A DNA stretch of 24,630 nucleotides, taken from IMG/VR virus record IMGVR_UViG_2923318301_000004; one strand, written 5' to 3'. Source of the DNA: a virus. Taxonomy: Duplodnaviria > Heunggongvirae > Uroviricota > Caudoviricetes. Both the position numbers and the translations under genes were made by a program. The notes under the pieces are model-generated. The model had not been told where the DNA came from, made no database searches, and was given only the letters and a program-made list of their open reading frames with translations. Of this stretch, positions 144 through 24,630 are shown piece after piece (position 1 is the stretch's first letter; each line of letters opens with the position of its first letter).

Positions 144-158
144 GGTAATGACTCCAAC

Positions 159-2435: not shown

Positions 2436-2539
2436 ACATTCCACCATGCATTACGATTAACGCCGCATAGCCAGTTGAACTTTGCTACTTTGTGAGAGGT
2501 AGTACCTTCTATCCAGTGCGAATTTAATTAATGGAATAA

Positions 2540-4543: not shown

Positions 4544-4605
4544 TAGCAACATGCCGTCCTGGGGGCGGCAATTATTATCCCGGCCGCAATATGAGGGAAT
4601 GCAGA

Positions 4606-7325: not shown

Positions 7326-7391
7326 GTGAGTCACCTCTGACTGAGAGTTTACTCACTTAGCCGCGTGTCCACTATTGCTGGGTAAGATCAC

Positions 7392-8451
<1,060 letters not shown>

Positions 8452-8455
<4 letters not shown>

Positions 8456-8869: not shown

Positions 8870-9540
8870 GTGTGCCCGGAGTTCAGGGCGGGCATGGATG
8901 CTTAAATGAACCGCGAGTCTGTCTGGAATATTGAGCCGGTAACTCACGATGAGAAACCCAACAATCCCACCGGGTGTGACGGTGGAGAACCTGAGCGGCA
9001 GTGACCTGCGGCATGCCCGCAGGGTGATGTAACCCGCTGACAACGGGGATTGAGGCGAGATCACTAAGCCGAGATGATCCTCAAGGTTAAGTACTGAAAG
9101 GCTGAAGAACATGAACCCGTTAATCCGCCTCTGTGGGTTGAAAACGTCACCACGGCCTACGTGATCTGACAGGCCGTGCAGGAGGAACTGGCAGTGATAC
9201 GTAAGCACTGCCGGTCGAAGGTGTTTTGACATGTATGCGAAACACCGGGGCAGCAGCGTCTATCACGCTTGCGTTGCTGACTTCTGCCAACTTGCGGCAA
9301 GCAAGGATAAAGAGTGCGACGGGCAGCCTCCTCAGTATGCCTGAGTCCAGGCAGGTAAACCGGGGAAGGTCAGCGACGGATGTTAAGGGGGCATGGCTCC
9401 GATGACGCGCTGGCTGGCGGAGCTTCCGTAGTAGTCCGCGATGGGGAAAGCCCATTACATGGCGAAGGGAAGCAGTTTGAATGTGTTTGCGACGTGAATT
9501 AACTGACCTAACGAGGTGAAGACCTTTGATAATCAGCGAA

Positions 9541-11049
9541 ATGCAACGCAAGCTTGCCACATGGGCAGTCACCGATCCGTCCCTACGGATTCAACGGCTG
9601 CTGCGTCTGATAACACAACCAGAATGGCTGGCTGAAGCGGCGCGGATCACGCTTTCATCAAAGGGGGCCCATACCCCCGGCGTTGATGGCGTGAACAAAA
9701 CAATGCTACAGGCCAGACTGGCTGTTGAGCTGCAAATCCTCAGGGATGAATTACTCTCAGGCCACTACCAGCCCTTGCCCGCCAGACGGGTTTACATCCC
9801 TAAAAGCAACGGCAAACTGCGACCACTGGGTATCCCCGCGTTGCGGGATCGTATTGTTCAGCGGGCCATGCTGATGGCGATGGAGCCGATATGGGAGAGT
9901 GATTTTCATACGCTCTCATATGGCTTCCGGCCTGAGCGCAGTGTCCACCACGCGATCCGCACGGTGAAATTACAGCTCACAGACTGTGGTGAAACCCGGG
10001 GACGCTGGGTGATTGAAGGCGACCTGTCCAGTTACTTCGACACCGTACATCATCGACTGCTGATGAAGGCTGTACGCCGCAGGATCAGTGACGCACGTTT
10101 CATGACTCTGCTGTGGAAAACCATCAAGGCGGGACATATCGATGTCGGTCTCTTTCGGGCGGCCAGTGAAGGTGTGCCACAGGGCGGTGTTATATCGCCG
10201 CTATTATCGAACATCATGCTGAATGAGTTCGATCAATACCTGCATGAGCGCTACCTGAGCGGGAAAGCCAGAAAAGATCGGTGGTACTGGAATAACAGTA
10301 TCCAACGGGGCCGAAGTACGGCGGTCAGAGAAAACTGGCAGTGGAAACCCGCGGTGGCGTACTGCCGCTATGCCGATGATTTTGTCCTCATCGTCAAAGG
10401 CACCAAAGCACAGGCGGAAGCCATCAGGGAGGAGTGTCGGGGTGTGCTCGAAGGCAGTCTGAAACTCAGGCTGAACATGGATAAGACTAAAATCACCCAT
10501 GTTAATGACGGCTTTATCTTTCTGGGGCACAGGATCATTCGCAAACGCAGTCGTTATGGCGAGATGCGAGTGGTCTCAACGATCCCGCAGGAGAAAGCCA
10601 GAAACTTCGCCGCATCGCTGACAGCACTGTTATCAGGCAACTACAGTGAAAGCAAAGTCGATATGGCTGAACAACTCAACCGAAAACTGAAAGGCTGGGC
10701 CATGTTCTATCAGTTCGTTGATTTTAAGGCCAAAGTCTTCAGTTATATCGACCGTGTCGTGTTCTGGAAGCTGGCTCACTGGCTGGCCCGCAAATACCGT
10801 ACAGGTATCGCTTCCCTGATGAGGTGGTGGTGTAAATCACCGAAACCGGGTCAGAGCAAAACGTGGGTTTTATTTGGTAAAACCAATCACGGCAAGCTCA
10901 GCGGCGAAATACTGTACCGGTTGGTGGGGCAAGGCAAGAAGCTGTTCCGCTGGCGGCTACCCGAAGGTAATCCCTATCTGAGGACGGAGACCAGAAACAC
11001 GTATACATCGCGCTTTACAGAAGTGGCAATGGCGTTCGCCAGCATTTAA
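9541..11049 (+). CDS. Group II intron-encoded protein (reverse transcriptase/maturase)
   Basis: RT motifs in order (RPLGIPALRDRIVQ; SYGFRPERS; YCRYADDFVLIV) followed by a maturase (X) domain; start assigned to the first ATG (MQRKLATW...) rather than the TTG at 9526 used by the ORF track. Confidence 0.85.
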   Translation: MQRKLATWAVTDPSLRIQRLLRLITQPEWLAEAARITLSSKGAHTPGVDGVNKTMLQARLAVELQILRDELLSGHYQPLPARRVYIPKSNGKLRPLGIPALRDRIVQRAMLMAMEPIWESDFHTLSYGFRPERSVHHAIRTVKLQLTDCGETRGRWVIEGDLSSYFDTVHHRLLMKAVRRRISDARFMTLLWKTIKAGHIDVGLFRAASEGVPQGGVISPLLSNIMLNEFDQYLHERYLSGKARKDRWYWNNSIQRGRSTAVRENWQWKPAVAYCRYADDFVLIVKGTKAQAEAIREECRGVLEGSLKLRLNMDKTKITHVNDGFIFLGHRIIRKRSRYGEMRVVSTIPQEKARNFAASLTALLSGNYSESKVDMAEQLNRKLKGWAMFYQFVDFKAKVFSYIDRVVFWKLAHWLARKYRTGIASLMRWWCKSPKPGQSKTWVLFGKTNHGKLSGEILYRLVGQGKKLFRWRLPEGNPYLRTETRNTYTSRFTEVAMAFASI

Positions 11050-11053
11050 ATGG

Positions 11054-11087
11054 AGAGCCGGATGCGCTGAAAGGTGCACGTCCGGTT
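11054..11087 (+). ncRNA. Group II intron domain V (catalytic hairpin)
   Basis: GAGCCGGATGCGCTGAAAGGTGCACGTCCGGTTC: about 34 nt, AGC triad near the 5' end, 2-nt bulge, GAAA tetraloop, immediately after the IEP stop codon and about 50 nt from the intron 3' end. Confidence 0.65.
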
Positions 11088-11111
11088 CGGGGAGGAGAGG
11101 CAGGGAAATAG

Positions 11112-11612
<501 letters not shown>

Positions 11613-11654
11613 GTTCACAGATAAAACACTCTCCAGGAAACCCGGGGCGGTTCA

Positions 11655-12792
11655 CTCATCTGCCGCTCTACCGCATCCCTCGACCATAATCCCGACTCAA
11701 TCAACGAACTACAAGCCATCGTCCTGAAGCCATGCCCACAAACCTCGACCTTCGTGTCATACCCCATTACGCGCAAAGCCTTGTTCACCGTATTCTCACT
11801 CATCGGCTTACGTGGATCGTGATCGCCCACAAAAATCAGCTCTCAATTTCCGCTCATGCTTTTGATCTTTTCCAAAATACTTAGGGCCTGCCGCGACAAA
11901 GGTACAAGGTGTGGTGTCCGCATCTTCGAGCCACGCTGAGAATGCTTGACTCCTTCCAGTTGCTCACGCTCACCTGGGATTGTCCACATAGCCGTTTCAA
12001 AATCTACTTCTGACCAGCGGGCAAAATGCAGCTCGCTCGAACGGATGAAAACCAATAAAGTGAGTTCAACCGCCAGCCGAGTTAACGGTCTGCCAGAATA
12101 GTGATCTATGCGATGAAGTAATTCAGGTATACGGTTCAGTTCAAGAGCTGCACGGTGCTGTCTTTTCGCCGTAGCAACCGCACCTGCAATCTCTTGCGCG
12201 GGGTTGTAGTCGATTAAGCCGCTCTGAACGGCAAAGCGCATAATCGCGGTAGTACGCTGCTGTAAACGGGCGGCAACTTCGAGCCGCCCGGATGACTCGA
12301 CTGCTTTAATGGGTACAAGAAGATCCCGCGTCTTCAGTTCCGCAATGTTCCGCTTACCGATAGCAGTAAAGAGATTATCCTCCAGACTTTTCAAAACACG
12401 AGCGCTATGCGATGCCGACCACTTCTGATTGCTGGCGTGCCAGTCTCTGGCGACTACTTCAACGTTATCGCCTCTTGTTCCTGTTCTACCTTAACAGCTT
12501 TCTTGTTTTCACTGGGATCGACACCATTAGCTAAAAGCTTACGAGCCTCATCCCGGCGTGCCCTGGCATCCGCCAACGACACTTCGGGGTATTTCCCCAA
12601 TGCCAGCATCTTCTCTTTACCGCCAAAGCGATAACGTAGCCGCCAGTATTTGGAGCCGTTAGGGTGAACCAGCAAAACCATGCCTTCACCGTCGGTCAGC
12701 TTATAGGCTTTTGCTTCAGGCTTAGCCGAACGAACCTTCACATCACTCAGAGCCATGATGAGTATCCTTTCAAGGGTTCTGTGTGGGTACAA
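11655..12792 (-). pseudogene. P4-type tyrosine integrase pseudogene (frameshifted, C-terminus removed by IS629)
   Basis: Three consecutive minus-strand ORF pieces (12454-12792 N-terminus MALSDVKVRSAKPEAKAYKLTDGEGMVLLVHPNGSKYWRLRYRF...; 11843-12394; 11615-11830) together cover a P4-like integrase but in different frames; the last piece abuts the IS629 end. Confidence 0.8.
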
Positions 12793-12954
12793 ACATTATC
12801 GAACCGGGAAATACCCGCAGTTGTACCCGCATCAGTAAGTTGATGTAGATTGAATCAGGTTGACTTAGGTTGAGTGAAAAAGCGAGGAAAGCCTTGCGGA
12901 TACTGGATTTTAGGCACAAAAAAAGACGTCCGTTGACGTCTATTGATGTTCCGA

Positions 12955-12976
12955 TGGTGCGAAGGCCGGAATAGAA
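12955..12976 (-). other. Degenerate tRNA-Leu (leuX) 3'-end-like sequence; candidate att remnant of a P4-like element
   Basis: Minus strand reads TTCTATTCCGGCCTTCGCACCA, close to the 3' end of leuX as I recall it (TTCGAGTCCGGCCTTCGGCACCA); lies about 160 bp upstream of the integrase pseudogene, as in tRNA-int junctions. Confidence 0.4.
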
Positions 12977-13210
12977 TAACTATATAACTCATTGAACATG
13001 ATGATAAAAATTTTATAGCTTATGACTTGTGCCCCATTTTGTGCCCCCAACAAAATCTTATTGTTGCTAACTAGCACAATAAATGAATTAGCAAGATAGA
13101 GTTGCCTAGTTAGGTTCCGTCTTACAGAGCCTAACCAGAACAACCAAACCTCTGAACCAACCTTGCGCAAGCTAGATAAAGTCATGCTGATTTATTAGGA
13201 CAACAAGCTA

Positions 13211-14143
13211 TTAAATTTCATATTTTGAAATTTCGCTGATTACATCATCCCCATATTTCTTAATCATGGAGGCAAAGAATTTATGTTCAATAAATTTCGC
13301 ATAGCCTAATTCTCCTTTAAGGGTTAGAATTTCTTTCTCAGATAAAACCCCACACACATAATAATGTATTTTACTTCTTAAAAGACGCTTTCTATCACGA
13401 CCTAAAGACAAATAACCATCAGTCGTAATAGTTACACCAGTTACATGTCTATTAAACTTCCTTGAGGTAAAAACTGTTTTCTCATGGTTTATTTTAATAT
13501 TCCTAAGATTTACTACGTTAAGAACTTCCCTTACTAACTTAGGAACATCAAATAAAGCTCCTTTGACTTTGGTGCTAAACGTAAGATCATCAGCATACCT
13601 TGAGTAGGTAATACCCAAATCCTTGCATCTTTTCGATATTTCCTCATCGAAGAAATACATTACTGTATTTGAAATAATGGGAGAAGAAGGTGCTCCAACA
13701 CTTAGGCGTAACGGGCTATTTCTTCTTAACTTCCAGAAGAAAAGATTTTTAAGAACAAAGATATCAGTATCAGTTAGTTCAACGCCATAATCTTTTAAGA
13801 CAGATAAAAGATTATGGGGTTTGATACTCATAAAAAAGTTTTTAAAATCCATTTTAAGCAAATAATCATTATTACAATGCATTAACGCATTAGATCTAAT
13901 ACTTTTATCGGCTTCATAAGCGAAAGCATTTTCATGAACTTTCAAATTAGCCAACATATGATTGATTACTACCTTCTGTAAGGCTTTAACTTGCCTAGCT
14001 GGTTGTGCAATTAATCTATATCCATTACCATTTCTTTTGGCGATAGGATAAATTTTATATCTGCGTGGAATAGTAACAATATACCTTTTAGCCTCTTCTT
14101 CGCTAAGAAAAAGACCTTTTGAAATATAACTTAGCAACTCCAT
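13211..14143 (-). CDS. Retron-type reverse transcriptase
   Basis: About 310 aa, RT domain only (no maturase or endonuclease); motifs SNALMH (NAxxH), FKNFF, VGAPSSP, YSRYADDLTFS (YADD) and NRHVTGVTI (retron VTG); start ATG lies 1 nt after the upstream effector stop (TAGaATG); collinear with Ec86 RT as I recall it. Confidence 0.85.
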   Translation of the reverse strand: MELLSYISKGLFLSEEEAKRYIVTIPRRYKIYPIAKRNGNGYRLIAQPARQVKALQKVVINHMLANLKVHENAFAYEADKSIRSNALMHCNNDYLLKMDFKNFFMSIKPHNLLSVLKDYGVELTDTDIFVLKNLFFWKLRRNSPLRLSVGAPSSPIISNTVMYFFDEEISKRCKDLGITYSRYADDLTFSTKVKGALFDVPKLVREVLNVVNLRNIKINHEKTVFTSRKFNRHVTGVTITTDGYLSLGRDRKRLLRSKIHYYVCGVLSEKEILTLKGELGYAKFIEHKFFASMIKKYGDDVISEISKYEI

Positions 14144-14144
14144 T

Positions 14145-15131
14145 CTAAGCCCCTCCACGCACGATATTGATTTGATTTAGAGCATTTTTCCTTTTTTTTG
14201 CAGTCTCGTCCATATCTTTAGCATCCATACTTAAGTAAGATTGTCGGATTGCAACCTTAATATTCATAGAATCCTTTATTTTACCACTAGCACTGATACC
14301 AAATTTAAGTTTACTCTCTCTATGCCCTCGGGAATAGAAGTAGTCTGTACCACTGTAAGATAATGATGAGGTTAATTTCATCTTTTCAAGCAAATAAAGT
14401 AAACGAGTTATTATTTTTTGTGGCACATCTATATCCATACAGTATAGTGCCCACTCTATTTCGCTTTTCTTGATTGGTTCTGATAAAAGGATTATTTCGT
14501 AAATCAATATAGCTAGGTGCCCAGTATTTTCAGGGTTATATCGCTCCGTTTTTTTTACACGTTTTAATCTAGAATGAATATCATGGTAGATAAGCTCAAC
14601 CTCATCATATTTCATACGATCCGATTTTGGCCATGGATAAACTGATACTGAGGCCTCATCTATTTTTTTAAGATACTCCAAAGGGCCTAAATATATAAAA
14701 GAAGATCTAGCAGGAATATTTTTTCGTTCATTTCCCTCAATCTCCTCAAATGGTGCGACTACATGCAATTTTTGAGCTAGAGACTTCCTATTAACAAATA
14801 ATCCAAGCTCAACTAACGAACCTGCACTTTCTAAACAGATAACAACTAATGTTGAAATATTTGCAATATCATCTTCAAAGCTCATTAGATCTGAATATGC
14901 CCCCTCTCTGAAGTAGTCATGGAAGTTCTCAGCTAAAATAAGAGAATCTGACAATTCAGGTTTGTGGCCTGCTACATAAGTAAATATGTGGTCTCGTACA
15001 CTCATTGGAGTGGAATTTATCGGCCCACCACAAACAAAAATAATAGGAGGCATGAACTGAACAGTGAAATTTGAATATTTCAAATCTCCAAACTGCTCTT
15101 GTAATGCATTCATATATGCAGAATCACTCAC
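14145..15131 (-). CDS. Retron effector, putative nucleoside 2-deoxyribosyltransferase-like (NDT) domain plus C-terminal putative DNA-binding domain
   Basis: 328-aa ORF between the structured non-coding region and the RT; N-terminal region PPIIFVCGGPI...ICLESAGSLVELGLF resembles the Rossmann-like NDT fold with a candidate catalytic Glu; likely GTG start at 15131 with AGGGGGT as RBS (alternative ATG at 15113). AT-rich codon usage like the RT. Confidence 0.6.
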   Translation of the reverse strand: MSDSAYMNALQEQFGDLKYSNFTVQFMPPIIFVCGGPINSTPMSVRDHIFTYVAGHKPELSDSLILAENFHDYFREGAYSDLMSFEDDIANISTLVVICLESAGSLVELGLFVNRKSLAQKLHVVAPFEEIEGNERKNIPARSSFIYLGPLEYLKKIDEASVSVYPWPKSDRMKYDEVELIYHDIHSRLKRVKKTERYNPENTGHLAILIYEIILLSEPIKKSEIEWALYCMDIDVPQKIITRLLYLLEKMKLTSSLSYSGTDYFYSRGHRESKLKFGISASGKIKDSMNIKVAIRQSYLSMDAKDMDETAKKRKNALNQINIVRGGA

Positions 15132-15139
15132 CCTTGTGA

Positions 15140-15420
15140 CCCCCTACTCCAAAAGAAAAGGTGGCTAACCAGCCACCTTCGACCCCTTTACCTAAAGGAT
15201 GCGCTTTAGACTTTCAGCAAGATCCTGAATGGAACGCAGTGGCATGAAGGATCTTGCTGAAAGTGCTAAAGCGCAACCCTAAATGTCCACAATAAATTAG
15301 TGTCTGGCGAAACGCCCGACAAGGATAAACCTGTTATCCCGCGCGTAAAGGTAGGGTTAGGATAGCAAAAGATGCGAGATTTTCAATAAGTAAGCGTACT
15401 GGCTGCCAGCAACCACCTAA
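15140..15420 (-). ncRNA. Candidate retron ncRNA (msr-msd) upstream of the effector/RT operon
   Basis: Non-coding, structure-rich stretch immediately 5' of the effector: long imperfect hairpin 15201-15274 (GCGCTTTAG.CTTTCAGCAAGATCC / GGATCTTGCTGAAAG..CTAAAGCGC), a candidate msd stem; second hairpin 15159-15180. Exact ends and a1/a2 repeats not resolved by eye. Confidence 0.45.
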
Positions 15421-15700
15421 ACCATTGACATTTAAACAAAAATAAATCTAACAATTGAAAGCAATACCTTATTGAATACAGCATTCTTATATCTCTCTTG
15501 ATATCGCAACATCACAATTATCACCGTTAGTGCGGGCAGCCCCGCACGCCTGCCCGCTTCGCTTAACAGACTGGTTTTCATGCACCTCATTAATCGTCTC
15601 AGAAGCCAGCACACAAGGGTTTTCTCGTCAAAAATGGTGCATAAGACTCATGCGTTTTCATGCGCCATAGACATGCACTCATGCGCTCTCATGTCAGCCA

Positions 15701-15739
15701 GGAAAAGGGGGTAAAAAATCCCGGTACTGGACCGGGATT
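15701..15739 (-). terminator. Rho-independent terminator after the sid-psu-ogr/delta genes
   Basis: Perfect 9-bp stem AATCCCGGT / ACCGGGATT with 5-nt loop (15717-15739), followed on the minus strand by a T-rich tract (TTTTACCCCCTTTTTCC); located 20 bp after the ogr/delta stop. Confidence 0.55.
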
Positions 15740-15758
15740 ACGTGGGCGTTCTTTCTAA

Positions 15759-16040
15759 TCAGACAGGAATCTGCTGACGGCTTGACAGTTTTGACGCGGA
15801 GCCATAGCGATTGAGCGTTTTCTGTTGTTTTTCCGGGGATTGTGCTTTGTCTGATAGCTGTTCATTGCGCCGGGGTTTCATGATTATCTTATCCACACTC
15901 TCCAGTGCCGTAAATGTGCAGGAACATTCCAGATTCTGGCACTGATACCACGAGCGTTTAACTGACGGAGCTTCATAGGCTGCTGTTCTGGCGTGTGCAA
16001 CTGTACCGCATTCCGGACATTTAAGTGCCATTAATATCAC
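15759..16040 (-). CDS. ogr: Ogr/Delta-family zinc-finger late-gene transcriptional activator
   Basis: ALKCPECGTVAHARTAAYEAPSVKRSWYQCQNLECSCTFTALESVDKIIMKP has the CxxC-(22)-CxxxxC pattern and spacing of P2 Ogr/P4 Delta; start may be the internal Met at 16031. Confidence 0.8.
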   Translation of the reverse strand: MILMALKCPECGTVAHARTAAYEAPSVKRSWYQCQNLECSCTFTALESVDKIIMKPRRNEQLSDKAQSPEKQQKTLNRYGSASKLSSRQQIPV

Positions 16041-16588
16041 TCCTGTATATCGTTAATGTCATTCAGGCGTTGCTGAAAACGCAGATGTTGTGCCGGGGTG
16101 TAAGAACCCTGGCAATCACGAATCATCCCGGGGTCAGGCATCAAACCGGATTCATCCAGGATCTCACGATAATCCCCGGCAATTTCAGGCGGTGTTATTG
16201 CCAGCTGGCGAACCAGAGCACTGCGTAATATACGGGACGCAACGTCAACCCCTCCGCGCCCCTTCAGGAACGGAGCCAGTGCAGATGTCAGGGCTGCCCC
16301 ATTCGCCTGCATAAAATTGCTGAGAGCGGCTTCTGTGCAGGCCTCCATCAGTAAATGCTGCGAGTAAATGCATTCGCGCGCAGCACAGTTAATTTGCCAT
16401 TTCAGCACATCCAGACGTTCCCGCAGTAATTCGAGCTGTCGGGCATAATCTGCTGGTTTTTCTGTGGCAGCGAGGAGAGATGTTATCTGTTGTTCAACGG
16501 CTTTTCGGCTCTCATTATGTCCGGCCCACAGAATACGGGCATTCCGAAAACTGGTAAGTGCCTGGTCAGGCGTGCCTCGGGCCGTCAT
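16037..16588 (-). CDS. psu: Psu-like protein (P4 polarity suppression / capsid decoration)
   Basis: 183 aa; segments LELLRERLDVLKWQINCAARECIYSQHLL, FMQANGAALTSALAPFL and YTPAQHLRF resemble P4 Psu as I recall it; start overlaps the sid stop. Confidence 0.65.
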   Translation of the reverse strand: MTARGTPDQALTSFRNARILWAGHNESRKAVEQQITSLLAATEKPADYARQLELLRERLDVLKWQINCAARECIYSQHLLMEACTEAALSNFMQANGAALTSALAPFLKGRGGVDVASRILRSALVRQLAITPPEIAGDYREILDESGLMPDPGMIRDCQGSYTPAQHLRFQQRLNDINDIQE

Positions 16589-17328
16589 ACTGCTTTCTCC
16601 TTCTCAGCAAGTTCCTGACGAACCTTAATTTTATGCATAGCTGCCGGAGAGAGTTGATTACTGAAATCCAGACGCGCCGCATAATCCGGGGCAACTCCCG
16701 CCAGTTTAAACACCGGGTCCTGCTCAGGCATCGCATCGTTAGCCAGAGCCGGTCTGGTGATATGTTTATGAATAAAGTCTTTCAGCACTGTGTCCGGGTC
16801 ATTAACTGAATTCACCACACCCACAACGGCACTGGCTTCCCGGCCCATTGTGGATTTAAGCAGGCTCAGCGTCTGAATAAGCGCTTTTCCATGCGACTGC
16901 ATAAAATCCTCCCAGATTTGTTTTGCGCGAATATCCACAAGAATGTTATGCGCGTGGATATACTTTCCGGCTAATTCTGCAGCTTTCTGCGGCAAAAGTG
17001 CATTTTCGCTTTCCTGAGCCGCCAGCAGCTCATCAAAATCCTCAAGCGTTTCTCGTCCCAGCGCAATTTCCGTGCGCAGTTTTTTCATTTCCTTTGAGAC
17101 CACGCCCTGACTTTCACGAAACAGCGTGCGCCACTCCTCATTCAGTGTGTTCGTCGTGGCTTCCATTTCAGCGCGACGCTGGCGGATTGTCGCAATATTA
17201 TCCGCTGCCGCTTTCTGCTGACGACGTGCTTCAAGCCATGCGTTTCTGGCTGTGTTCATGGTTTCCAGTGCCCGCTGCGTTACAGCCGGAAAAGTGGAAA
17301 GGTTGTTATTCACTGCGGTGTTGTTCAT
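16585..17328 (-). CDS. sid: Sid-like protein (P4 capsid size determination external scaffold)
   Basis: 247 aa, strongly helical and charged; EWRTLFRESQGVVSKEMKKLR and position directly upstream of psu match P4 Sid as I recall it. Family call rests mainly on gene context. Confidence 0.55.
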   Translation of the reverse strand: MNNTAVNNNLSTFPAVTQRALETMNTARNAWLEARRQQKAAADNIATIRQRRAEMEATTNTLNEEWRTLFRESQGVVSKEMKKLRTEIALGRETLEDFDELLAAQESENALLPQKAAELAGKYIHAHNILVDIRAKQIWEDFMQSHGKALIQTLSLLKSTMGREASAVVGVVNSVNDPDTVLKDFIHKHITRPALANDAMPEQDPVFKLAGVAPDYAARLDFSNQLSPAAMHKIKVRQELAEKEKAV

Positions 17329-17506
17329 GACTTCTCCTGTCGGGTTGGTTCGTTACGTCAATTGTGTCGTGGCTGACACAAGCACACTATCGGTGCTCAG
17401 TGTGTGGTGGCTGGCACAACGGACGCTTGCGGTTATTCAGACGTGGCTATGAAAGCCAGCCAGATAAAAATGCCCTCTGTTTCAGTCTGCTTTATGTCCC
17501 TGATGC

Positions 17507-17694
17507 GGTGGAACAGGTGAAACATGTGTTACAGCTTTGTTTTATAAGGCATTTATATACACTGCACCGGTGGAACATCGCGGGTAACAAGGTGGAACAG
17601 CGGATTGGCTGGCGTTACATCTGTTCCACCTCACTATTTCAGAAGGTGGAACAGGTTCAGCCCTGTAAAATACGGTTGTTCCACCTGTTTCACC
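17507..17694. repeat. Iteron cluster: 8 copies of TGTTCCACC / GGTGGAACA (two are TGTTTCACC variants) in both orientations
   Basis: Copies at 17507, 17516, 17569, 17591, 17622, 17646, 17677, 17686; in the non-coding gap between the alpha-like primase gene and sid; closely resembles the TGTTCACC octamers of P4 ori/crr that are bound by alpha. Confidence 0.6.
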
Positions 17695-17728
17695 TGTTAC
17701 CCTTAATAAATAAGACTCACGCAAAGCC

Positions 17729-20401
17729 TTAACCCGGCACCTCGCTGTTGAAGACATAGAGCCTGCGGGGATTCATCTCTGGCGGGCGAATGGTTGTCTG
17801 GAGTTTGCCATCAGTGGAGGGCAGCAGGTATCCACGATCTGCGCACAGACGCGCCACCTTGCGCGGGTCAAATCCCCTGCAGATTTCTTTCCAGCCGGAC
17901 GGCATGACATAGAACGTAGTGACAGCTTCCGTGCCCTGCGCGGTACTGCCTTTCTCCACCCTGCGCCAGCCCACCATATTGCCGGGGCGGTTGCGCTCGT
18001 CATACCAGTCTGCAAAGCGGCTGTACTGATTCGCGGTAAAGAAACTGCGAACCTGCTCCAGTGCGGCGATATCTTCCTGATTGGCGGTGTGCCCGCGATC
18101 TTTCAGCCATGCGTTCAGGCAGACGCGGGTTGCCCGCAGTGCTTCACCCTCAGGCCAGCCGGTGATACCCAGACGGGTTGCCAGTTCACCTGCCATCGCC
18201 ACCAGAGCAAAGCGGTTCACAGCCCGGCCCACCTGATTGCCTGCATCTTTCGGAGTCAGGGCGGCAGCATATTCCTTCATCAGCGATTTTGCCTGTGCCG
18301 TTAGTCCGTTAAGATCAGCGGTCAGTGCTTTCAGCCACTCCCGGAACGGCGAACCGTAGTAGCAGGACGTGGCCCATTCAAGATGCTCTGCCAGAGCCTT
18401 GCCGCTGTCGAAGCCGTGCAGCTCCTCAAAAACGCCAAACTTCCCGGAATCGCTGGGGATCTGGATCATCCTGACTTCCATCCCGGCAAAAGTACGCTCA
18501 CCGGCCTTTGCCGCATGTTCGGTCAGAGACAACTCGCCAGTTGAAAAGAACAACAGGCGCCAATGCTTACGGGTACGCAGCTCACCGTCCGTACCGGCAC
18601 GGCCCTTGCCCTGACCGTTTGCCAGCATGTAGGCGATATTGCCTGCCTCGCGTCCGTCAACTTCCCGGATCTCATCAAGCATCATGGCGGCATCGTTGCG
18701 GCGGCTGGCGCATCCCTCCAGCGCGTTGCCGGTGGCCCGCCATGTCTGCCAGTAGTCAGGCCCGCCGCAGACGGAGGTTGCCGCTTTCATGGTGGTGGTC
18801 TTACCGTCTGTCGATTCCCCTTTGAGGTGGTAGCCGCCGCCGTCCATACCAACCAGCCGTAACAGTGGTGCAGCAAAGGCCAGGCTGACAGCAAATGCCA
18901 CGCGGGAGTTGCCGGTACAGTAGCGGGATACATGCTCCCGCCATTCCTCTGTTGTGCCCGACACGCGGAAATCACGCCCCTGCACGGAAGTGGTCTGGAG
19001 AATGACACCCTCTGCACCTTCACCGCTGACCTCATCCTGCAGGACGTAAACCTGACCATGCCAGCCAGTACGACTGACGCAGGTCACGCGGCGTTCCGGT
19101 TTACACAGTGAGATATATTCCATCAGGCGTGCGCGTGCCTCACCGGTGGTGCTGATATAAGACAGCCCGTTAACCAGCAATACCCGGCGCAGTTCCTCAC
19201 CACTGCCGCTCAGCATTTCCATCGGCATCGCCCAGCGGCGACACTCACCCCACGTATCTTCCCATTCCAGCAGTCGTCCGAAGTTACCGCCATCGGCATC
19301 GCAGGTGATTGCCGTCACGCGCAGCGGGCTGCATATTTTGACGTTCTGGATCTCCGTCTCACCGTTGCGCTGTACCTGCTTTTCATACCAGAGATATTCC
19401 TGGGTAAGACGGAACCCGTGCGGCAGTTGCGTGCGGCCCTCCCCGCACAGCACCAGACCGTTACGAAAGGCTTCACGGGCGCGGGTAATACCGTGCTCCC
19501 GATGGAAGTCATTCCAGTCGGCCTTAATCTCTCCCGGTGGCAGCGTCATCCAGCCGCCAACAGCTTTTGCCGCCCGTTCAGCAAAGGCTCTGCCGGGATT
19601 CTCACCCCCGTCCTGAAAATCGTTATCACCGGCGATGATAATTTTTACCTCAGGCCAGCGTGCCCGCAGCGACTGCGCCACATTGGGCAGGTTGCCCGCA
19701 GATATGGCAGCCACTACGCATCCGGCAGTGAGCTGACTTACCGTCAGCGCCGTAGCGTAACCTTCGGTAATCACCACCTGTACCGGTGGTTCAGACGGTA
19801 ACGGGCTGAGCGACACAAACGCGCCTTTCATCGTGCTGCCGGGCAGTATGCTTTTTTCACCCGTCGGGGCGATAAGCTGTGCACCAGTCACGGCTCCGGT
19901 GTTGGTCGTGAGTGGTAACAGCAGGGAACCGGCAGGAAAATCCTTACCGCTGATATGCTGCACGCTTCCGGTCAGAGAGGCCGGGTATCCGGCGAACCCT
20001 TTTCCTGTCAGATAGGCGCTTTCTCCCGTGTGGCTCTCTTTCATCAGCGCCGCCACGGTAAGACCCATGTCGCGTTTAGGGGCTTTTTTTCTGGCAGGCT
20101 TAACAGGCAGTTCCTGCACATCCGGCACATTAAGCACCTGCGCCACCTCCTGCGCAGCCTTTCTGACGCTGTAACCGGTTACGAGCTTAACCAGATCCAG
20201 ACCGTCACCATTGCCACACTGGCTGCAGATCCACGTCCCGCGCCCGTCAAGGTCATCAAGGCGAAAACGATCCTTGCCCCCACATTTCGGGCAGGGACCG
20301 TGCCTGCCGTTTTCAGGTACATCAATACGCAGCATCTGGAGAATAACGGGCCATTTCCCCCGTGCGGCGGCTGAAATCTGCGTAACCGTCTGTATTGTCA
20401 T
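17729..20401 (-). CDS. P4 alpha-like primase-helicase (zinc-binding N-terminus, TOPRIM primase, C-terminal P-loop helicase)
   Basis: 890 aa; CPKCGGKDRFRLDD...WICSQCG zinc ribbon; TOPRIM-like VVITEGYATALT...IIAGDNDFQDGGENPG; Walker A GESTDGKTT. Confidence 0.85.
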   Translation of the reverse strand: MTIQTVTQISAAARGKWPVILQMLRIDVPENGRHGPCPKCGGKDRFRLDDLDGRGTWICSQCGNGDGLDLVKLVTGYSVRKAAQEVAQVLNVPDVQELPVKPARKKAPKRDMGLTVAALMKESHTGESAYLTGKGFAGYPASLTGSVQHISGKDFPAGSLLLPLTTNTGAVTGAQLIAPTGEKSILPGSTMKGAFVSLSPLPSEPPVQVVITEGYATALTVSQLTAGCVVAAISAGNLPNVAQSLRARWPEVKIIIAGDNDFQDGGENPGRAFAERAAKAVGGWMTLPPGEIKADWNDFHREHGITRAREAFRNGLVLCGEGRTQLPHGFRLTQEYLWYEKQVQRNGETEIQNVKICSPLRVTAITCDADGGNFGRLLEWEDTWGECRRWAMPMEMLSGSGEELRRVLLVNGLSYISTTGEARARLMEYISLCKPERRVTCVSRTGWHGQVYVLQDEVSGEGAEGVILQTTSVQGRDFRVSGTTEEWREHVSRYCTGNSRVAFAVSLAFAAPLLRLVGMDGGGYHLKGESTDGKTTTMKAATSVCGGPDYWQTWRATGNALEGCASRRNDAAMMLDEIREVDGREAGNIAYMLANGQGKGRAGTDGELRTRKHWRLLFFSTGELSLTEHAAKAGERTFAGMEVRMIQIPSDSGKFGVFEELHGFDSGKALAEHLEWATSCYYGSPFREWLKALTADLNGLTAQAKSLMKEYAAALTPKDAGNQVGRAVNRFALVAMAGELATRLGITGWPEGEALRATRVCLNAWLKDRGHTANQEDIAALEQVRSFFTANQYSRFADWYDERNRPGNMVGWRRVEKGSTAQGTEAVTTFYVMPSGWKEICRGFDPRKVARLCADRGYLLPSTDGKLQTTIRPPEMNPRRLYVFNSEVPG

Positions 20402-20781
20402 ACTTCCCCCTGATACAACGTCACACCGGTACTGCAGAAGTCATCAAAGGCCGCCGGAAGCGTGCGGTACATCTCCGCCATCACTTCACAGCCGCGCGCG
20501 GTCAGTACCGGCGGCGCGGTCAGCAGTGACGGCTCCAGCATGTCAGTCAGCAGTGCCAGCGCGGCAGCGGCGCCCTGTGCTTCGCCGTACTCGTTAATCA
20601 GTACGCACTCGATATGCAGCGCAATGGCCATTTCAATACGCTCCACCGTCAGGCTGTGCGGACCATACTGATCACTGCCAGTTTCGTTCAGCATTTTCTG
20701 CCGCCATGCTGAAGCAATAGCCCGCCGGTAAAGCGCGGTGGTCATTTCTGCCGGGAAAATGGAAACCTGCGGCTGGTTCAT
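20398..20781 (-). CDS. Hypothetical protein (P4-like left-operon gene preceding alpha)
   Basis: 127-aa ORF whose stop overlaps the alpha start (ATGA); position corresponds to the epsilon/orf151 region of P4; no motif recognised. Confidence 0.45.
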   Translation of the reverse strand: MNQPQVSIFPAEMTTALYRRAIASAWRQKMLNETGSDQYGPHSLTVERIEMAIALHIECVLINEYGEAQGAAAALALLTDMLEPSLLTAPPVLTARGCEVMAEMYRTLPAAFDDFCSTGVTLYQGEV

Positions 20782-21062
20782 CTGGCACCTCCTTCAATCA
20801 GTGCGCAGCTGTGTGCAATATCCGTCAAATCTGCCAGCAGGTACTCCATCAGCGCGGCGACACCATGCGCACAGCCAGCGTCCAGTGCTCCGGCCTGAGA
20901 CGGGTATTCAGAAAAGAGAAGCTGGAGCATGTCGCAGGCATTTCTTGCGCGGGTCAGTTTTCCGAAACTGTCCTCTGACAACCCATAGGCAAAAGCACCG
21001 GTATTGTGTTTTTCAGGCAAAGTGTGGCCCTGAGCACCGTTGTGCCCGTTTGAAATATTCAT
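20778..21062 (-). CDS. Hypothetical protein
   Basis: 94-aa ORF, 4-nt overlap with the downstream ORF (translational coupling); no motif recognised. Confidence 0.4.
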   Translation of the reverse strand: MNISNGHNGAQGHTLPEKHNTGAFAYGLSEDSFGKLTRARNACDMLQLLFSEYPSQAGALDAGCAHGVAALMEYLLADLTDIAHSCALIEGGAR

Positions 21063-21093
21063 CGTGGATTACTCCGTTTTCAGCGGTATTTTG

Positions 21094-21453
21094 TCAGAGA
21101 AACTTTGAATAGTGACCGTCGTCAGGCTCAGCAGAACGCCGTATGCTACGCTCCCGCCAGCGGATAAATAGCACAGACGGATGCAGTGTCAGCGGGCCGG
21201 AACCACTACCGCCAGCAGGAGCTGGTGCAGGCTTCAAGAGCGGTACATCAAACAGGCGCGTATACCGCTGTTCAAACCATGCCAGAGGGCAGGAAGAAAG
21301 CTGGTTGTCGCTGTCATGACGTATCAGCACTTCACAGCTGAATTCAGGATTAACCAGCGCCACAGAGGGCGAGGCTTCTATTAATCGGATAATCGTGACC
21401 GTCCAGCCACGTTCATGCTGCCAGCGTTCGCCGGGGTGCGGATAATTACGCAT
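21094..21453 (-). CDS. Hypothetical protein
   Basis: Start taken at ATG 21453 (MRNYPHPGERW...), which overlaps the stop of the upstream small ORF (ATGCGTAA); the ORF track begins 10 codons earlier. Confidence 0.4.
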   Translation of the reverse strand: MRNYPHPGERWQHERGWTVTIIRLIEASPSVALVNPEFSCEVLIRHDSDNQLSSCPLAWFEQRYTRLFDVPLLKPAPAPAGGSGSGPLTLHPSVLFIRWRERSIRRSAEPDDGHYSKFL

Positions 21454-21622
21454 GTTCACCTCCGCAGGGAATGCGCCCGGCAAAGCTCAGTACATAGTCC
21501 GGGGCAAGTCTGCGCCGCGCTGACCGCTCGTTATCTGCGGTGATCCTTAACATCACAGGACGGGCATTGCGTTGACTGCGGTTGATCGCCGCAAATAACC
21601 AGGTACACTTCTGTTTAGCCAT
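21446..21622 (-). CDS. Hypothetical small protein (58 aa), first gene of the alpha operon
   Basis: ATG at 21622 preceded by GAGGTAACGAAG; this frame is the 3' part of a longer 244-aa ORF on the track that I consider spurious upstream of this start. Confidence 0.4.
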   Translation of the reverse strand: MAKQKCTWLFAAINRSQRNARPVMLRITADNERSARRRLAPDYVLSFAGRIPCGGEHA

Positions 21623-21695
21623 CTTCGTTACCTCATTTAGCGGATTGGTCAGAAGCCCGGTTAGTGTTGCTGCACTGTCGGGCTTCGCACTCACA

Positions 21696-21793
21696 AGGTG
21701 AATCGCACCTTTAATTTTAAAGCTACCCTTAAGTGAATCGCACTTCAAGCTTTTTATTATCATTTTTTTTGCATATACTGAATCGCACCTAAC
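21696..21793. promoter_or_regulatory. Divergent promoter region with three copies of the near-palindromic motif (G)TGAATCGCAC(C)
   Basis: TGAATCGCAC at 21699, 21734 and 21779; the third copy sits between a TATACT -10-like hexamer (21774-21779) and the RBS of the plus-strand small gene. Confidence 0.45.
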
Positions 21794-21809
21794 GCGAGGA
21801 GATCCAGTA

Positions 21810-21995
21810 ATGGCAACGAGTTCAACTAACAACAAGTCGCAGCAACTTAATGCTCGTTTCCCACATGATGTAGTTGCAGAATTAGAAAGCAACCTTGAAG
21901 ATGGAGAAACGAAAGCGCAATTCATTGTTACGGCTGTAAAAGGCGAGATTAAACGCCGACAGCGCAGGAAAAATAAGCCAGAGCAAGGTAGTTGA
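21810..21995 (+). CDS. Small putative DNA-binding regulator (61 aa), divergent from the alpha operon
   Basis: ATG with AGGAGA RBS 7 nt upstream; basic C-terminal tail (KGEIKRRQRRKNK); possible ribbon-helix-helix. Function inferred only from size, charge and position. Confidence 0.45.
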   Translation: MATSSTNNKSQQLNARFPHDVVAELESNLEDGETKAQFIVTAVKGEIKRRQRRKNKPEQGS

Positions 21996-22057
21996 ATAGA
22001 GAAGCCAACAGACGTTCTCTCTGTTTCCATGTTAATTTCAGTAAGCGACAATATTTT

Positions 22058-22091
22058 TAAGCCCACAAATTCATTATGTCGGGCTTTTTTA
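22058..22091 (+). terminator. Putative intrinsic terminator after the 61-aa gene
   Basis: AAGCCC...(16-nt loop)...GGGCTT followed by TTTTATT; the loop is long, so this is tentative. Confidence 0.35.
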
Positions 22092-22322
22092 TTAGTGATT
22101 TTCATATCGCTCACCACGAGAGGCATATATTTGCTCTTGAATCCAGTGATCCACTTCGCTTTCAACAAATGAAATTGCACGAGTTCCTATTTTCACCGGA
22201 CGGGGAAATGTATTGTTTGCAAGCTGTTTGTAAAGCCATGCCTTGCTACGCTGAACGCGTCTTAAGACCTCTTTTGCTGAGATAAGAGTCTGATTATCTG
22301 AAAAGCTGTTTGCATATTCCAT
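22092..22322 (-). CDS. alpA: AlpA/Vis-family phage regulatory protein (excisionase-like winged HTH)
   Basis: MEYANSFSDNQTLISAKEVLRRVQRSKAWLYKQLANNTFPRPVKIGTRAISFVESEVDHWIQEQ matches the AlpA/P4 Vis pattern; start placed at ATG 22322 (GGAGT RBS 8 nt upstream) rather than the track's 22367. Confidence 0.7.
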   Translation of the reverse strand: MEYANSFSDNQTLISAKEVLRRVQRSKAWLYKQLANNTFPRPVKIGTRAISFVESEVDHWIQEQIYASRGERYENH

Positions 22323-22699
22323 CTTGTTACTCCGTGTTCTACTTAAGTTCACGGTGACTTTAAACACTGGGAAAAAGTGATTCTAGTGATAATGGAATCT
22401 ATTAAGACAAATATTGATTCTATTGAAAAACAATAATCTCCACTGAAAAAAGAAGTAATATTCATATGAAAGAACACGGAGAGAAGGAAATGCACAAAAA
22501 AAAACAAAATCAATAGAATTCATATGGATAGGATGGAAAATCAAAAAATCATATGTCAAAAGGTATTATTGCATTTTAACGATTCATATTACCTAGGAAT
22601 TAGCACAGTATTACACCATATTACATCGTATTACCCCCTATAGCCCGTTAGAGCCTCTTGTGGCCCTTCTATTGAGAGATAGCCAGAAAATTAATAAAT

Positions 22700-23338
22700 T
22701 TACTCTCCGTATTTTATAATGTCTTTCCCAAGCTTTATTTTCTTATAAAACGTAGCTTTTTTAACCCCTTTCATTAGAATCTCATTCTCATTACAAAAAG
22801 AAACAATATCATTATATATAACACTATTATCGCTATAACTTACCTTTCCATGTCTCTTAAGCAATTCAATTAGTAAATAAATTAATTTACAACTATAATT
22901 ATCCTCATCATCTTTTCTGTACTGCCCTCTACCATTACTCCTTAATTTTTTACCAACTTCATATAATTCACTTCCTCCTAACGTCATTAGAATATCACTC
23001 CAATCTTTATTTTTTACCTGTTGTCGTAATGCGTTCTCAATTCTCTCCTTAATCTCCACAGGTACAATACCTTCCCTCTGAAAGATATAAGCGGCAGTTA
23101 ATAATAAGTTCGCCTCCACTTTTTGCGTGGCGGATACGTTTTTATATTCATTAATTAATTGTAGATTTCTGGTTATTGCCTTTCTTAATCTAATAACCTC
23201 TTTTAATTGAACCTCAGTCAATTCATCATTTTCGGTATCATAGTCAAAACCATTCATAGCAAGCGCCACTTCGTGTGGCGTTATGTAAGTTAACCTATTA
23301 AAATAAAACAAATTATTATCAAATTGAGTATTATTCAT
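22700..23338 (-). CDS. Hypothetical protein, AT-rich orphan gene between int and alpA
   Basis: 212-aa ORF with markedly AT-rich, Lys/Asn/Ile/Tyr-rich composition unlike the flanking integrase and P4 core genes; no family recognised. Confidence 0.6.
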   Translation of the reverse strand: MNNTQFDNNLFYFNRLTYITPHEVALAMNGFDYDTENDELTEVQLKEVIRLRKAITRNLQLINEYKNVSATQKVEANLLLTAAYIFQREGIVPVEIKERIENALRQQVKNKDWSDILMTLGGSELYEVGKKLRSNGRGQYRKDDEDNYSCKLIYLLIELLKRHGKVSYSDNSVIYNDIVSFCNENEILMKGVKKATFYKKIKLGKDIIKYGE

Positions 23339-23367
23339 TTAAATCTCTCCGCAGCCCCCAATGGTAA

Positions 23368-24630
23368 TTATTTTCCATGCATACGCGCAAAATCATATGG
23401 TGTGACAGATCCATTCTTATTAGCATCAATATAATCAGCCCACCACTGCAGCATTAATCTTCTTTCTTCAAGATATTCGGAAGTATGCATATATGAACCT
23501 TTCACATTTTTTCGTTCAACGTGGCTTAACTGTCTTTCAATGGCATCATCATTCCATAGTTTCGACTCACTTAGCGCACCACGCGCCATAGTTCTAAACC
23601 CATGACCACATACTTCAGTTTTCGTATCATATCCCATTACACGTAAGGCGTTATTTACTGTATTTTCACTCATTACTTTTTTAGGATCATGATCGCTGGG
23701 AAATATAACCTCACCTTTACCACTCAAGGCATGTAAACGTTTAAAAATATCAAATGCTTGTTTGCTAAGCGGAACAATATGTTCAGTTTTCATCTTCATC
23801 CCACGCTCAGAGTGTTTTACGCCGGGAATAGGCTTACGAATTCCGGGTATTGTCCACTCGCTTCGTTCAAAGTTAACCTCACTCCAGCGAGCAAAACGCA
23901 TCTCACTTGAACGTATAAATGTGAGTAGCGTTAATTCAACGGCAAGCCGTGTCATTAGTCGCCCTTTATAGCGTGATAGTCTTTCAAGAAGCTCAGGGAT
24001 TCTTTTTGGGGGTAGTGCTGGGTGGTGGGTTGCTTTAACGCTTAAAAGCGCTCCAGCCATATCGCATGCAGGATTTGATTCAAGGAGGTCATTCTGCACA
24101 CCAAAACGCATAATTGCGGTTACGCGCTGCATCAGTCGCTGCGCGACATCATGTTTACCCGCCGTATCGACAGCTTTGATTGGATTGAGAAGCTGGCTGG
24201 TTCTCAACGTTCTGGCATCGATTTGACCTATCGAGGGGAAAATATACTGCTCAAGTGTCAGCAGAACACGACGGCTATGATCTTCGCTCCAAGTAAGGTT
24301 ACTTGCGTGCCATTGCCTTGCGATAGTTTCAAATAAATATGCCCCCTCAATTTCAGCTTGTGCCCCCTTTTGCTCAGCTTTGGGGTCAATACCCTGAGAC
24401 AACAATTTCTTTGCTGCATCGCGCTTACCCCGCGCTTCAGCCAAAGTGACCGTCGGGTATACACCAAAAGCGAGTCGATCTTCCTTTTTGTCAGAGGGGC
24501 GGCGATATTTCATGCGCCAGTACTTAGAACCTTTAGGGGAGACCTCAAGATACAAACCGCCTCCATCAGCCATTTTATAAGCTTTCTCTTTCGGCTTTGC
24601 GGTCTCTATCTGGCGAGCGTTGAGTTTCAT
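23368..24630 (-). CDS. int: P4-type tyrosine integrase (intact, 420 aa); start codon at the window edge
   Basis: N-terminal AKPKEKAYKMADGGGLYLEVSPKGSKYWRMKYR... and C-terminal catalytic region (HGFRTMARGAL...; ...YMHTSEYLEERR) typical of the P4/IntA family. Confidence 0.9.
   Translation of the reverse strand: MKLNARQIETAKPKEKAYKMADGGGLYLEVSPKGSKYWRMKYRRPSDKKEDRLAFGVYPTVTLAEARGKRDAAKKLLSQGIDPKAEQKGAQAEIEGAYLFETIARQWHASNLTWSEDHSRRVLLTLEQYIFPSIGQIDARTLRTSQLLNPIKAVDTAGKHDVAQRLMQRVTAIMRFGVQNDLLESNPACDMAGALLSVKATHHPALPPKRIPELLERLSRYKGRLMTRLAVELTLLTFIRSSEMRFARWSEVNFERSEWTIPGIRKPIPGVKHSERGMKMKTEHIVPLSKQAFDIFKRLHALSGKGEVIFPSDHDPKKVMSENTVNNALRVMGYDTKTEVCGHGFRTMARGALSESKLWNDDAIERQLSHVERKNVKGSYMHTSEYLEERRLMLQWWADYIDANKNGSVTPYDFARMHGK

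Follow-up and report, generated by a model that had tools for sequence, protein, structure and literature searches.

What kind of element occupies positions 12955-24630 of the Caudoviricetes record IMGVR_UViG_2923318301_000004, and how does its gene order relate to that of the satellite phage P4? The record, whose full 24,630 nucleotides are called the window below, had been interpreted once before from its letters alone (the sequence-only reading) as a P4-like satellite with co-directional genes, followed by a second, degraded P4-like element in tandem. We find that positions 12955-24630 very probably belong to an integrated P4-family satellite at leuX, a member of a collinear sub-lineage, whose functions are assigned from homology and anatomy. 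What appears to be new is the collinear architecture and a swap of the helicase in its replication protein. The psu/delta swap, retrons as a type of cargo and variants that lack core genes are already known, and there is nothing unusual about the element as such, the retron that it carries or its tandem arrangement with an island.

We investigated the gene content using the Prokaryotic Genome Annotation Pipeline (PGAP) annotation of 100%-identical genomes and profile searches (Pfam, NCBIfam, PHROG and PADLOC), and the two agreed. Along the minus strand, the order is int, orf212, alpA, an Icd-like gene, two small open reading frames (ORFs), Cnr/DUF5375, the primase-helicase gene, eight iterons, Psid, sid, psu, delta, a terminator, a cos-like site, the retron and attR. 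The sequence-only reading was thus right about the P4-like satellite, its genes and their order, including psu ahead of ogr/delta, but it left out the cos region and the Psid dyads. It had also placed every gene on the minus strand, which holds for all but one small PGAP gene (YlcI/YnfO, 21810-21995), the sole plus-strand gene of the element. The features on which the argument turns are as follows.

23368-24630, minus strand: int, intact P4-type tyrosine integrase gene (72% identity to P4 Int; Pfam Arm-DNA-bind_3, Phage_int_M and Phage_integrase)
22092-22322, minus strand: alpA/vis-type regulator/excisionase gene (Pfam Phage_AlpA, 1.1e-11; phrog_66 and phrog_2790, which are families of P4 Vis too)
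21446-21622, minus strand: gene for an Icd-like small protein (phrog_1743 and phrog_6928; 56% identity to residues 87-131 of the P4 cI ORF, its C-terminus)
20398-20781, minus strand: gene for a DUF5375 protein, homologue of P4 Cnr (orf106) (Pfam DUF5375, 8e-14; phrog_5991, as for P4 orf106; 40% identity by tblastn)
17729-20401, minus strand: alpha', predicted chimeric primase-helicase gene (Pfam Zn_Ribbon_Prim, Toprim_3 and DUF927, the last at 1.9e-90)
17507-17694, no strand: eight iterons TGTTCCACC, putative replication origin (six exact, two with one mismatch; both orientations, flanking an AT-rich stretch)
17363-17418, minus strand: Psid-like late promoter (TGT-N12-ACA dyads at 17363-17380 and 17401-17418, 38 bp apart)
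16585-17328, minus strand: sid, homologue of the external scaffold for capsid size determination (phrog_6165, 8.7e-93; BLASTP against P4 Sid, 1e-12 over 226 aa)
16037-16588, minus strand: psu, polarity suppression/capsid decoration protein gene (Pfam Psu, 1e-44; phrog_6366, the P4 Psu family, 4.2e-70; 30% identity to P4 Psu)
15759-16040, minus strand: delta, gene for a single-domain Ogr/Delta zinc-finger late activator of 90-93 aa (Pfam Ogr_Delta, 1e-15)
15713-15739, minus strand: intrinsic terminator after delta, read from the sequence (AATCCCGG, 7 nt, CCGGGATT, then a T-run)
15532-15586, minus strand: cos-like packaging site (GGTGCATGAAAACC ... AAGCGGGCA-GGCGTG, then the 19-mer GGCGTGCGGGGCTGCCCGC at 15550-15532)
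12955-12971, minus strand: attR remnant, a copy of the leuX 3' end with a 1-nt deletion (TCCGGCCTTCG-CACCA), read from the sequence

The element is bounded by a tRNA-Leu gene (leuX) on one side and by a 16/17 att remnant on the other. Many clinical E. coli strains carry positions 12955-24630 in their chromosome with 100% identity, and at least 80% of this stretch is present in 155 of 5,426 complete E. coli genomes. In strain M217, a tRNA-Leu gene lies 165 bp past the window end, beside the intact int, where the sequence-only reading had proposed to look for a tRNA and an att site; it adjoins ahr and is therefore leuX. The leuX 3' end TCCGGCCTTCGGCACCA is the P4 attP core GAGTCCGGCCTTCGGCACCA and recurs with the 1-nt deletion at 12955-12971. 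A fuzzy att search placed attL 11,840 bp from attR. From these positions, the integrated element, which comprises 12955-24630 and approximately 180 bp past the window end, has a length of 11,840 bp, the size of P4.

The core set of Moura de Sousa & Rocha 2021 was used to assess membership in the P4-like family, and Integrase, AlpA/Vis, Sid, Psu and Delta are all present in the element. When 8 kb of the element was compared by blastn ("distant" mode) with 50,697 phage records, there were zero matches; a comparison at the DNA level was thus impossible, and P4 was compared through proteins and profiles. The likeness covers the leuX site, the att core, the integrase, AlpA/Vis, the Icd-like ORF, Cnr, the alpha primase domain, Sid, Psu and delta. 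It also covers the position of the iterons just upstream of Psid, a cos or cos-like site followed by a non-essential/defense slot, and a genome of approximately 11.6-11.8 kb.

The layout, in contrast, is not that of P4. The P4 record (NC_001609) runs int(-), attP, crr, alpha(-) ... vis(-), ori, sid(+), delta(+), psu(+), cos, gop/beta/cII, in agreement with the divergent alpha and sid operons and the sid-delta-psu order that the sequence-only reading had given for P4. The P4 sid operon is located between int and vis and is divergent from the alpha operon, whereas here the sid block comes after alpha' with the same orientation, so that the modules are indeed collinear, as had been claimed. Moreover, the hotspot is att-distal, delta has a single domain, the cos 19-mer is different, and the element is without epsilon, orf151, a second iteron cluster (crr) and an exact dyad upstream of alpA.

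In a survey of complete P4-like elements, the order int-psu-delta-sid-alpA-epsilon-alpha was found in 77%, a psu/delta swap in 20%, and other exceptions were rare (PMC8628076). Since it corresponds to the 20% class, psu before delta is a known common variant. The order int-alpA-alpha'-sid-psu-delta, all co-directional, departs from the published conserved order, and the main text of that survey lists only other exceptions. Variants or sub-families of P4-like elements without core genes have been acknowledged (PMC10085698), atypical core-gene arrangements have been mentioned (PMC13586616), and integrase exchange was reported to be frequent in the family (PMC8628076). In the published scheme, loss of epsilon would make the element a "Type B" variant. 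The main texts of the P4-like surveys (supplementary figures excluded) contain no explicit description of a collinear architecture or of a helicase swap that we could find, and a literature search retrieved no publication combining DUF927 with P4-like satellites.

We then examined alpha', which the sequence-only reading had called alpha. Alignment with P4 alpha is limited to residues 1-316 of alpha' (38% identity), and residues 415-643 match the SaPI (Staphylococcus aureus pathogenicity island) Rep structures 8tch and 5dgk. P4 alpha and canonical alpha proteins contain Zn-ribbon, Toprim, D5_N, DUF5906 and Pox_D5 domains, whereas alpha' contains Zn-ribbon, Toprim and DUF927. For the helicase half, the nearest relatives in the phage database are the replicases of the small satellite-like elements phiAH14b, vB_Pae_U10 and PT1028. 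By these matches, alpha' is predicted to be a P4-alpha-like primase joined to a DUF927 helicase of SaPI Rep type; the earlier name thus fits the primase half but not the helicase/DNA-binding half.

The eight iterons lie between the alpha' stop and sid and form the only such cluster in the window. Their match count was reached by 0 of 100 shuffles, and TGTTCCACC is nearly the same as the P4 type-1 iteron TGTTCACC. In P4, the ori iterons are found just upstream of Psid and the crr iterons just downstream of alpha; here, one cluster fills both positions. The replication module of SaPIs and other phage-inducible chromosomal islands (PICIs) likewise has a DUF927 helicase matching SaPI Rep, an iteron origin 3' of the replicase and a collinear int-alpA-replication order. 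In contrast to those islands, the primase and helicase are fused here, the primase is of the P4-alpha type and the hijack module is of the P4 type.

The assignments of Sid and Psu in the sequence-only reading were confirmed by the profile searches, P4 Sid falling into the same family as the Sid found here (phrog_6165, 6.3e-116 for P4 Sid). With the tRNA and the att site present as well, neither of the outcomes that the sequence-only reading had named as refuting came about. The single-domain delta matches each half of the 166-aa P4 delta. Upstream of sid, the centers of the two dyads lie 43.5 and 81.5 nt from the sid ATG; in P4 Psid, the dyads are at 9493-9510 and 9531-9548 and the sid ATG is at 9583, so the distances are exactly the same. 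The dyads are also present in a canonical relative, with a 2-nt shift. Because dyads with P4 geometry are retained, the sid operon probably forms a separate delta/Ogr-dependent late unit, even though it is co-directional with and follows alpha'. The collinear layout is thus not equivalent to one operon, and the sid operon retains its own predicted delta/Ogr promoter.

The sid-psu-delta-cos cassette is shared at the DNA level with satellites of canonical order, with 92.5% identity to one in O157:H7 (locus L003) and approximately 85% to one at ssrA (locus L004). This homology begins within the sid 5' end, at about 17241, and does not extend to the promoter and origin upstream. Both canonical satellites are psu/delta-swap elements with a nearly identical sid-psu-delta-terminator-cos cassette that ends in the same 19-mer and has defense cargo right after cos. 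In contrast to the collinear element, they keep the P4 order (int, hotspot, delta/psu/sid reversed, alpA ... alpha) and encode a 777-aa P4-type alpha with D5_N, DUF5906 and Pox_D5.

The terminator after delta is conserved in relatives and was not listed by a consensus scan. The approximately 180 bp that follow it (about 15532-15712) are conserved with canonical satellites, and a 55-bp part (15532-15586) aligns with the cos-left regions of P2, P4, Fels-2 and RE-2010. In Fels-2 and RE-2010, the match sits between gpA and the portal gene, where the cos of the P2 family lies. An alignment of six satellites shows that conservation stops exactly after the 19-mer and that the cargo differs from there on. 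The 19-nt cos of P2/P4 was not found in the window with up to 3 mismatches. That search had first suggested that there is no cos at all, a conclusion that was overturned when the flank proved homologous to canonical satellites and Fels-2/RE-2010. Positions 15532-15586 thus represent, by homology, a predicted cos-like site directly 3' of the delta terminator region. The 19-mer is common to satellites of both architectures (window 15532-15550; loci L003-L007) and resembles the P2/Fels-2 cos minus 1+6 bases.

The collinear layout is not confined to this element. At least 80% of the contiguous alpha'-sid-psu-delta block is present in 322 of the 5,426 complete E. coli genomes (approximately 6%). 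The same layout was seen with an AAA-ATPase set as cargo at leuX, with DRT3 at a third site and with a single hypothetical gene at argW, and the argW and third-site copies carry other integrases and another int-adjacent ORF. The order is also the same in Pseudocitrobacter, Pantoea, Citrobacter, Enterobacter, Yersinia (alpha' 73% identical) and Shigella, where psu is often absent, and alpha' is 98% identical across several genera. Three delimited elements measure 11.8, 12.7 and 13.0 kb and fit a P4-size capsid. A strain-specific rearrangement or a mis-assembly was considered as the cause of the order and rejected, as hundreds of independent complete genomes and other genera have it. Given the many genomes, several att sites, varied cargo and multiple genera, the layout represents a lineage and not a one-off.

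Variation around this layout was observed among the relatives. Many collinear relatives outside E. coli have delta directly after sid, without psu (L023-L027, L040, L042 and L044), and in two loci delta lies ahead of a distant Sid-like gene (L026 and L043). In Proteus, Morganella and Pantoea leporis (L033, L039 and L045), alpha' homologues with 63-65% identity are followed downstream by an integrase on the opposite strand, with a P4 cII-like gene between the two in L039 and L045. A tblastn search of these three loci did not reveal any sid, psu or delta, and they may represent a further architecture.

How did the layout arise? Inversion or recombination between the iteron-bearing ori and crr regions would make alpha and sid co-directional, and exchange or a flip of the int-att module would then complete the present order. 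Modular recombination gives the best account of the layout because the cassette is shared at 92.5% identity with canonical satellites and because the alpha' junction falls at the iteron cluster. The position of this junction suggests a rearrangement at the ori/crr regions together with an exchange of the int module.

Several observations weigh against the element being an integrated P4-family satellite of a collinear sub-lineage. Homologues of epsilon, which serves helper derepression, and of orf151 were not found in the element by tblastn and PHROG, and epsilon had no Pfam match either. Upstream of alpA there is no exact TGT-N12-ACA dyad, unlike at P4 PLL. Pfam finds no P4 (Pox_D5) DNA-binding domain in alpha', although the iteron resembles that of P4, and the pairing of alpha' with the iterons is for that reason an assumption. 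attL and attR differ by the 1-nt deletion. The 19-nt cos core is unlike the cos of P2, 186 and Fels-2 and matches no phage record; in IMG/VR, searched with two patterns, the 19-mer was seen in satellites only. Finally, the rearrangement pathway is one that we infer, and excision, replication and packaging of the element are predictions.

Some of these points would also fit a cryptic, immobile remnant retained only as a carrier of the retron, namely the divergent cos core without a phage match, the attR deletion and the missing epsilon. We consider such a remnant improbable, since all ORFs are intact and translationally coupled, the lineage occupies several att sites with differing integrases and cargo, alpha' is so strongly conserved between genera, and six satellites share the cos block base for base as far as the point where the cargo begins. 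Moreover, the identical attR deletion (TCCGGCCTTCG-CACCA) is found behind three different satellites (L005 4375-4391, L062 8303-8319 and window 12955-12971). It is thus a trait of the site, or of an old island junction, and not of the decay of one element. A PICI-type island, with the collinear int, alpA, pri/rep and ori known from Gram-negative PICIs and SaPIs, might instead have captured a P4 sid-psu-delta-cos cassette and become an inter-family chimera. The alpha' helicase speaks for this, with its match to SaPI Rep and its relatives in phiAH14b, vB_Pae_U10 and PT1028, as do the origin directly 3' of the replicase gene, the collinear order and a cassette that, alone among the parts of the element, is shared with canonical P4-like satellites (92.5% DNA identity). 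However, the genes around the helicase are of P4 type (the Icd-like gene, the Cnr homologue, the primase half, the integrase and AlpA), the iteron resembles that of P4, and the PICI packaging and interference genes (terS, ppi, rpp and capsid genes) had no Pfam or PHROG match among the element proteins. A domain swap within a P4-type backbone requires fewer steps, because the flanking genes and the iteron are P4-type and PICI genes were not detected, and we therefore regard a PICI backbone as rather unlikely, though less so than the remnant. We thus retain the P4-family satellite of a collinear sub-lineage. Beyond this, and only tentatively, the collinear elements may form a separate, old and widespread lineage born of inter-family exchange, in which a P4-type early region gained a Rep helicase of the SaPI/PICI type together with the origin next to it, the sid-psu-delta-cos cassette is exchangeable with canonical backbones, and the cos core is shared by no sequenced helper.

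In a further step, we investigated what lies beyond attR, where the sequence-only reading had proposed a second P4-like element in tandem with the first. Two features are relevant here.

11618-12756, minus strand: second P4-family integrase, pseudogene (59% identity to the intact integrase; frameshift near residue 97 and an internal stop; noted as a pseudogene by PGAP)
8129-11617, plus strand: IS629 split by a group II intron (PGAP "IS3-like element IS629 family transposase" in a 99.9%-identical genome; IS3-family hidden Markov model)

The second integrase is indeed frameshifted and is cut at approximately residue 377 by the right end of IS629, as alignment to the intact integrase and the PGAP naming show; this part of the proposal was borne out. 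Its identity to P4 Int is 58%. The intron within IS629 contains ltrA (9526-11049; NCBIfam group_II_RT_mat) and an Rfam Intron_gpII match (11053-11139), and the Rfam ALIL frameshift pseudoknot lies in IS629 at 8410-8526. Past the second integrase are found IS629 with its group II intron, copies of IS100, IS3 and IS1, a BCCT transporter gene, a DUF2254 protein gene and an lpxM fragment. No homologue of alpha, sid, psu, delta, alpA or cos was found in window 1-11617.

A decayed distal satellite, left from two P4-like satellites that once sat in tandem at leuX, would explain why a P4-family integrase lies, correctly oriented, behind an att copy and why this integrase is decayed and cut by IS629. 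P4-family integrases are, however, common on tRNA islands that are not satellites, and beyond this one there are insertion sequence copies and island genes instead of satellite genes or cos. Furthermore, at least 80% of window 11618-12975, i.e., the 1.36 kb with the integrase and attR, is present in 660 genomes, and in strain MSB1_4I the same pseudo-integrase stands behind a different, canonical P4-like satellite at leuX. Since it is found behind that satellite too, the second integrase is part of an old leuX island in front of which varied satellites have inserted, and satellites with leuX-specific integrases are inserted between the old island and the tRNA. We therefore hold a former pair of satellites to be very improbable. 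The tandem arrangement proposed earlier stands, but nothing found at its second member, an integrase pseudogene without any satellite gene, points to a satellite.

We also considered the second integrase as the satellite's own int in the canonical int-hotspot-psu order. This was rejected because the second integrase is directed away from the retron and does not converge on psu, and because the att remnant separates the two. A terminator-like structure, a perfect 7-bp hairpin with a T-run behind it (window 12924-12941), is located immediately outside attR on the upstream side of the second integrase. The island to the left of the second integrase varies among otherwise identical strains (window 1-8100 versus L001 1-9100). 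The M217 island has shf-capU-virK-lpxM and an inverted BCCT/DUF2254 segment, and in the window, as in strain 961, the island contains fragments of lpxM and IS100 together with IS1 and IS3. These differences between strains point to deletion and inversion mediated by insertion sequences.

Between the cos-like site and attR, the element carries its cargo.

15145-15355, minus strand: retron non-coding RNA (msr 15286-15352; msd hairpin 15145-15281)
14145-15131, minus strand: retron effector gene, NDT-like, STM3845/RcaT family (NCBIfam STM3845_fam, 223.7 bits with a cut-off of 100; PADLOC NDT_II-A, 1.8e-87)
13211-14158, minus strand: retron reverse transcriptase gene, St85 family, type II-A (NCBIfam retron_St85_RT, 333.8 bits with a cut-off of 235; PADLOC RT_II-A, 7.9e-121; Pfam RVT_1)

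The RNA matched the Rfam families msr (E=9.5e-5) and STnc400 (E=1.4e-8), each below the gathering score. Its predicted fold is closed by a1/a2 pairing and comprises two hairpins in msr and a long one in msd (z=-8.2). Judged by profiles and fold, the cargo is a predicted complete type II-A (St85/Sen2-family) retron with msr-msd, effector and reverse transcriptase. It is like Retron-Sen2 (St85) in its reverse transcriptase and NDT-like effector, in the order msr-msd/effector/reverse transcriptase and in the match of its msd to STnc400. It differs in being borne by a satellite, in E. coli, with an RNA whose Rfam matches fall under gathering. The defense hotspot of P4-like satellites was described as lying between psu and int (Rousset et al. 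2022, PMC9122126). Variable anti-phage cargo beside cos is found here likewise, and retrons are among the known cargo types (e.g., that of retronphage phiR73), whereas the slot occupies the interval from delta/cos to attR, with int at the opposite prophage end. The defense slot thus adjoins cos in both the collinear and the canonical architecture.

The remaining features belong to the early region.

22700-23338, minus strand: orf212, no assigned function (phrog_30524, 9.6e-109; conserved beside int in the lineage)
21810-21995, plus strand: small gene of the YlcI/YnfO family (PGAP; NCBIfam, 2.8e-18; phrog_949, 1.7e-23)
21699-21790, no strand: three 12-nt direct repeats TGAATCGCACCT, spaced 35 and 45 bp
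21094-21453, minus strand: hyp119 (PHROG of unknown function; phrog_14861 and phrog_30862 for the hyp94/hyp119 pair)
20778-21062, minus strand: hyp94 (PHROG of unknown function, from the same pair)

Homologues of orf212 with 23-31% identity are next after int in loci of Yersinia, Xenorhabdus and Proteus. The order of hyp94 and hyp119 is kept in Pantoea, Yersinia and other genera, and the two fall outside the PHROG families that hold P4 epsilon or orf151. Overlaps of start and stop codons couple the Icd-like gene with hyp119, hyp94 with Cnr and alpha', and sid with psu (and delta). The TGAATCGCACCT repeats are situated in the gap from which the plus-strand YlcI/YnfO gene and the Icd-like/alpha' operon diverge, and relatives have other small plus-strand ORFs at the same spot (L006 13147-13320; L007 14038-14232). 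The region 21699-21790 may be an operator or an antisense-RNA control region. Upstream of alpA, a 377-bp AT-rich gap (22323-22699) is rich in short direct and inverted repeats; by eye, TGTAATA was read three times within it, at about 22610-22640, a motif that is absent from the computed repeat list.

Taken along the element, these features are consistent with the following life cycle. The P4-type integrase would insert the element into the leuX 3' end, and AlpA/Vis would help excision and activation. A translationally coupled operon (the Icd-like gene, two small ORFs, the Cnr homologue and alpha') would supply replication, with alpha' presumably acting on the eight iterons immediately downstream of its gene. 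The Ogr of a P2-like helper, or the delta of the element, would switch on sid-psu-delta via the two dyads. Of the three products, Sid would reduce the size of the helper capsid, Psu would serve both as a decoration of this capsid and as an inhibitor of Rho, and delta would trans-activate the helper late genes. Cutting of the cos-like site after delta by the helper terminase would allow packaging of the approximately 11.8-kb genome. The slot between cos and attR would be the defense hotspot of the family, in which the type II-A retron, with its NDT-like toxin effector, may protect the host by abortive infection. The module order of the sub-lineage is att, int, orf212, alpA, the early/replication operon, ori, Psid-sid-psu-delta, cos, the defense hotspot and att.

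P4-like satellites have been described as extremely conserved in gene order, and surveys delimit them and their hotspot by this order (int to alpha; "between psu and int"). A lineage present in approximately 6% of complete E. coli genomes and in other genera breaks it, with att-distal cargo, no epsilon and a replaced helicase. Tools based on order can mis-delimit or mis-type such elements. If the collinear elements are indeed a separate lineage born of inter-family exchange, their odd cos core would imply an unrecognized helper group or a relaxed requirement of the terminase. The lineage also offers a natural test of whether P4-type late control works downstream of a replication operon and of which helper recognizes the variant cos. 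For the family as a whole, it indicates that the capsid-hijack/cos cassette and the replication module recombine independently.

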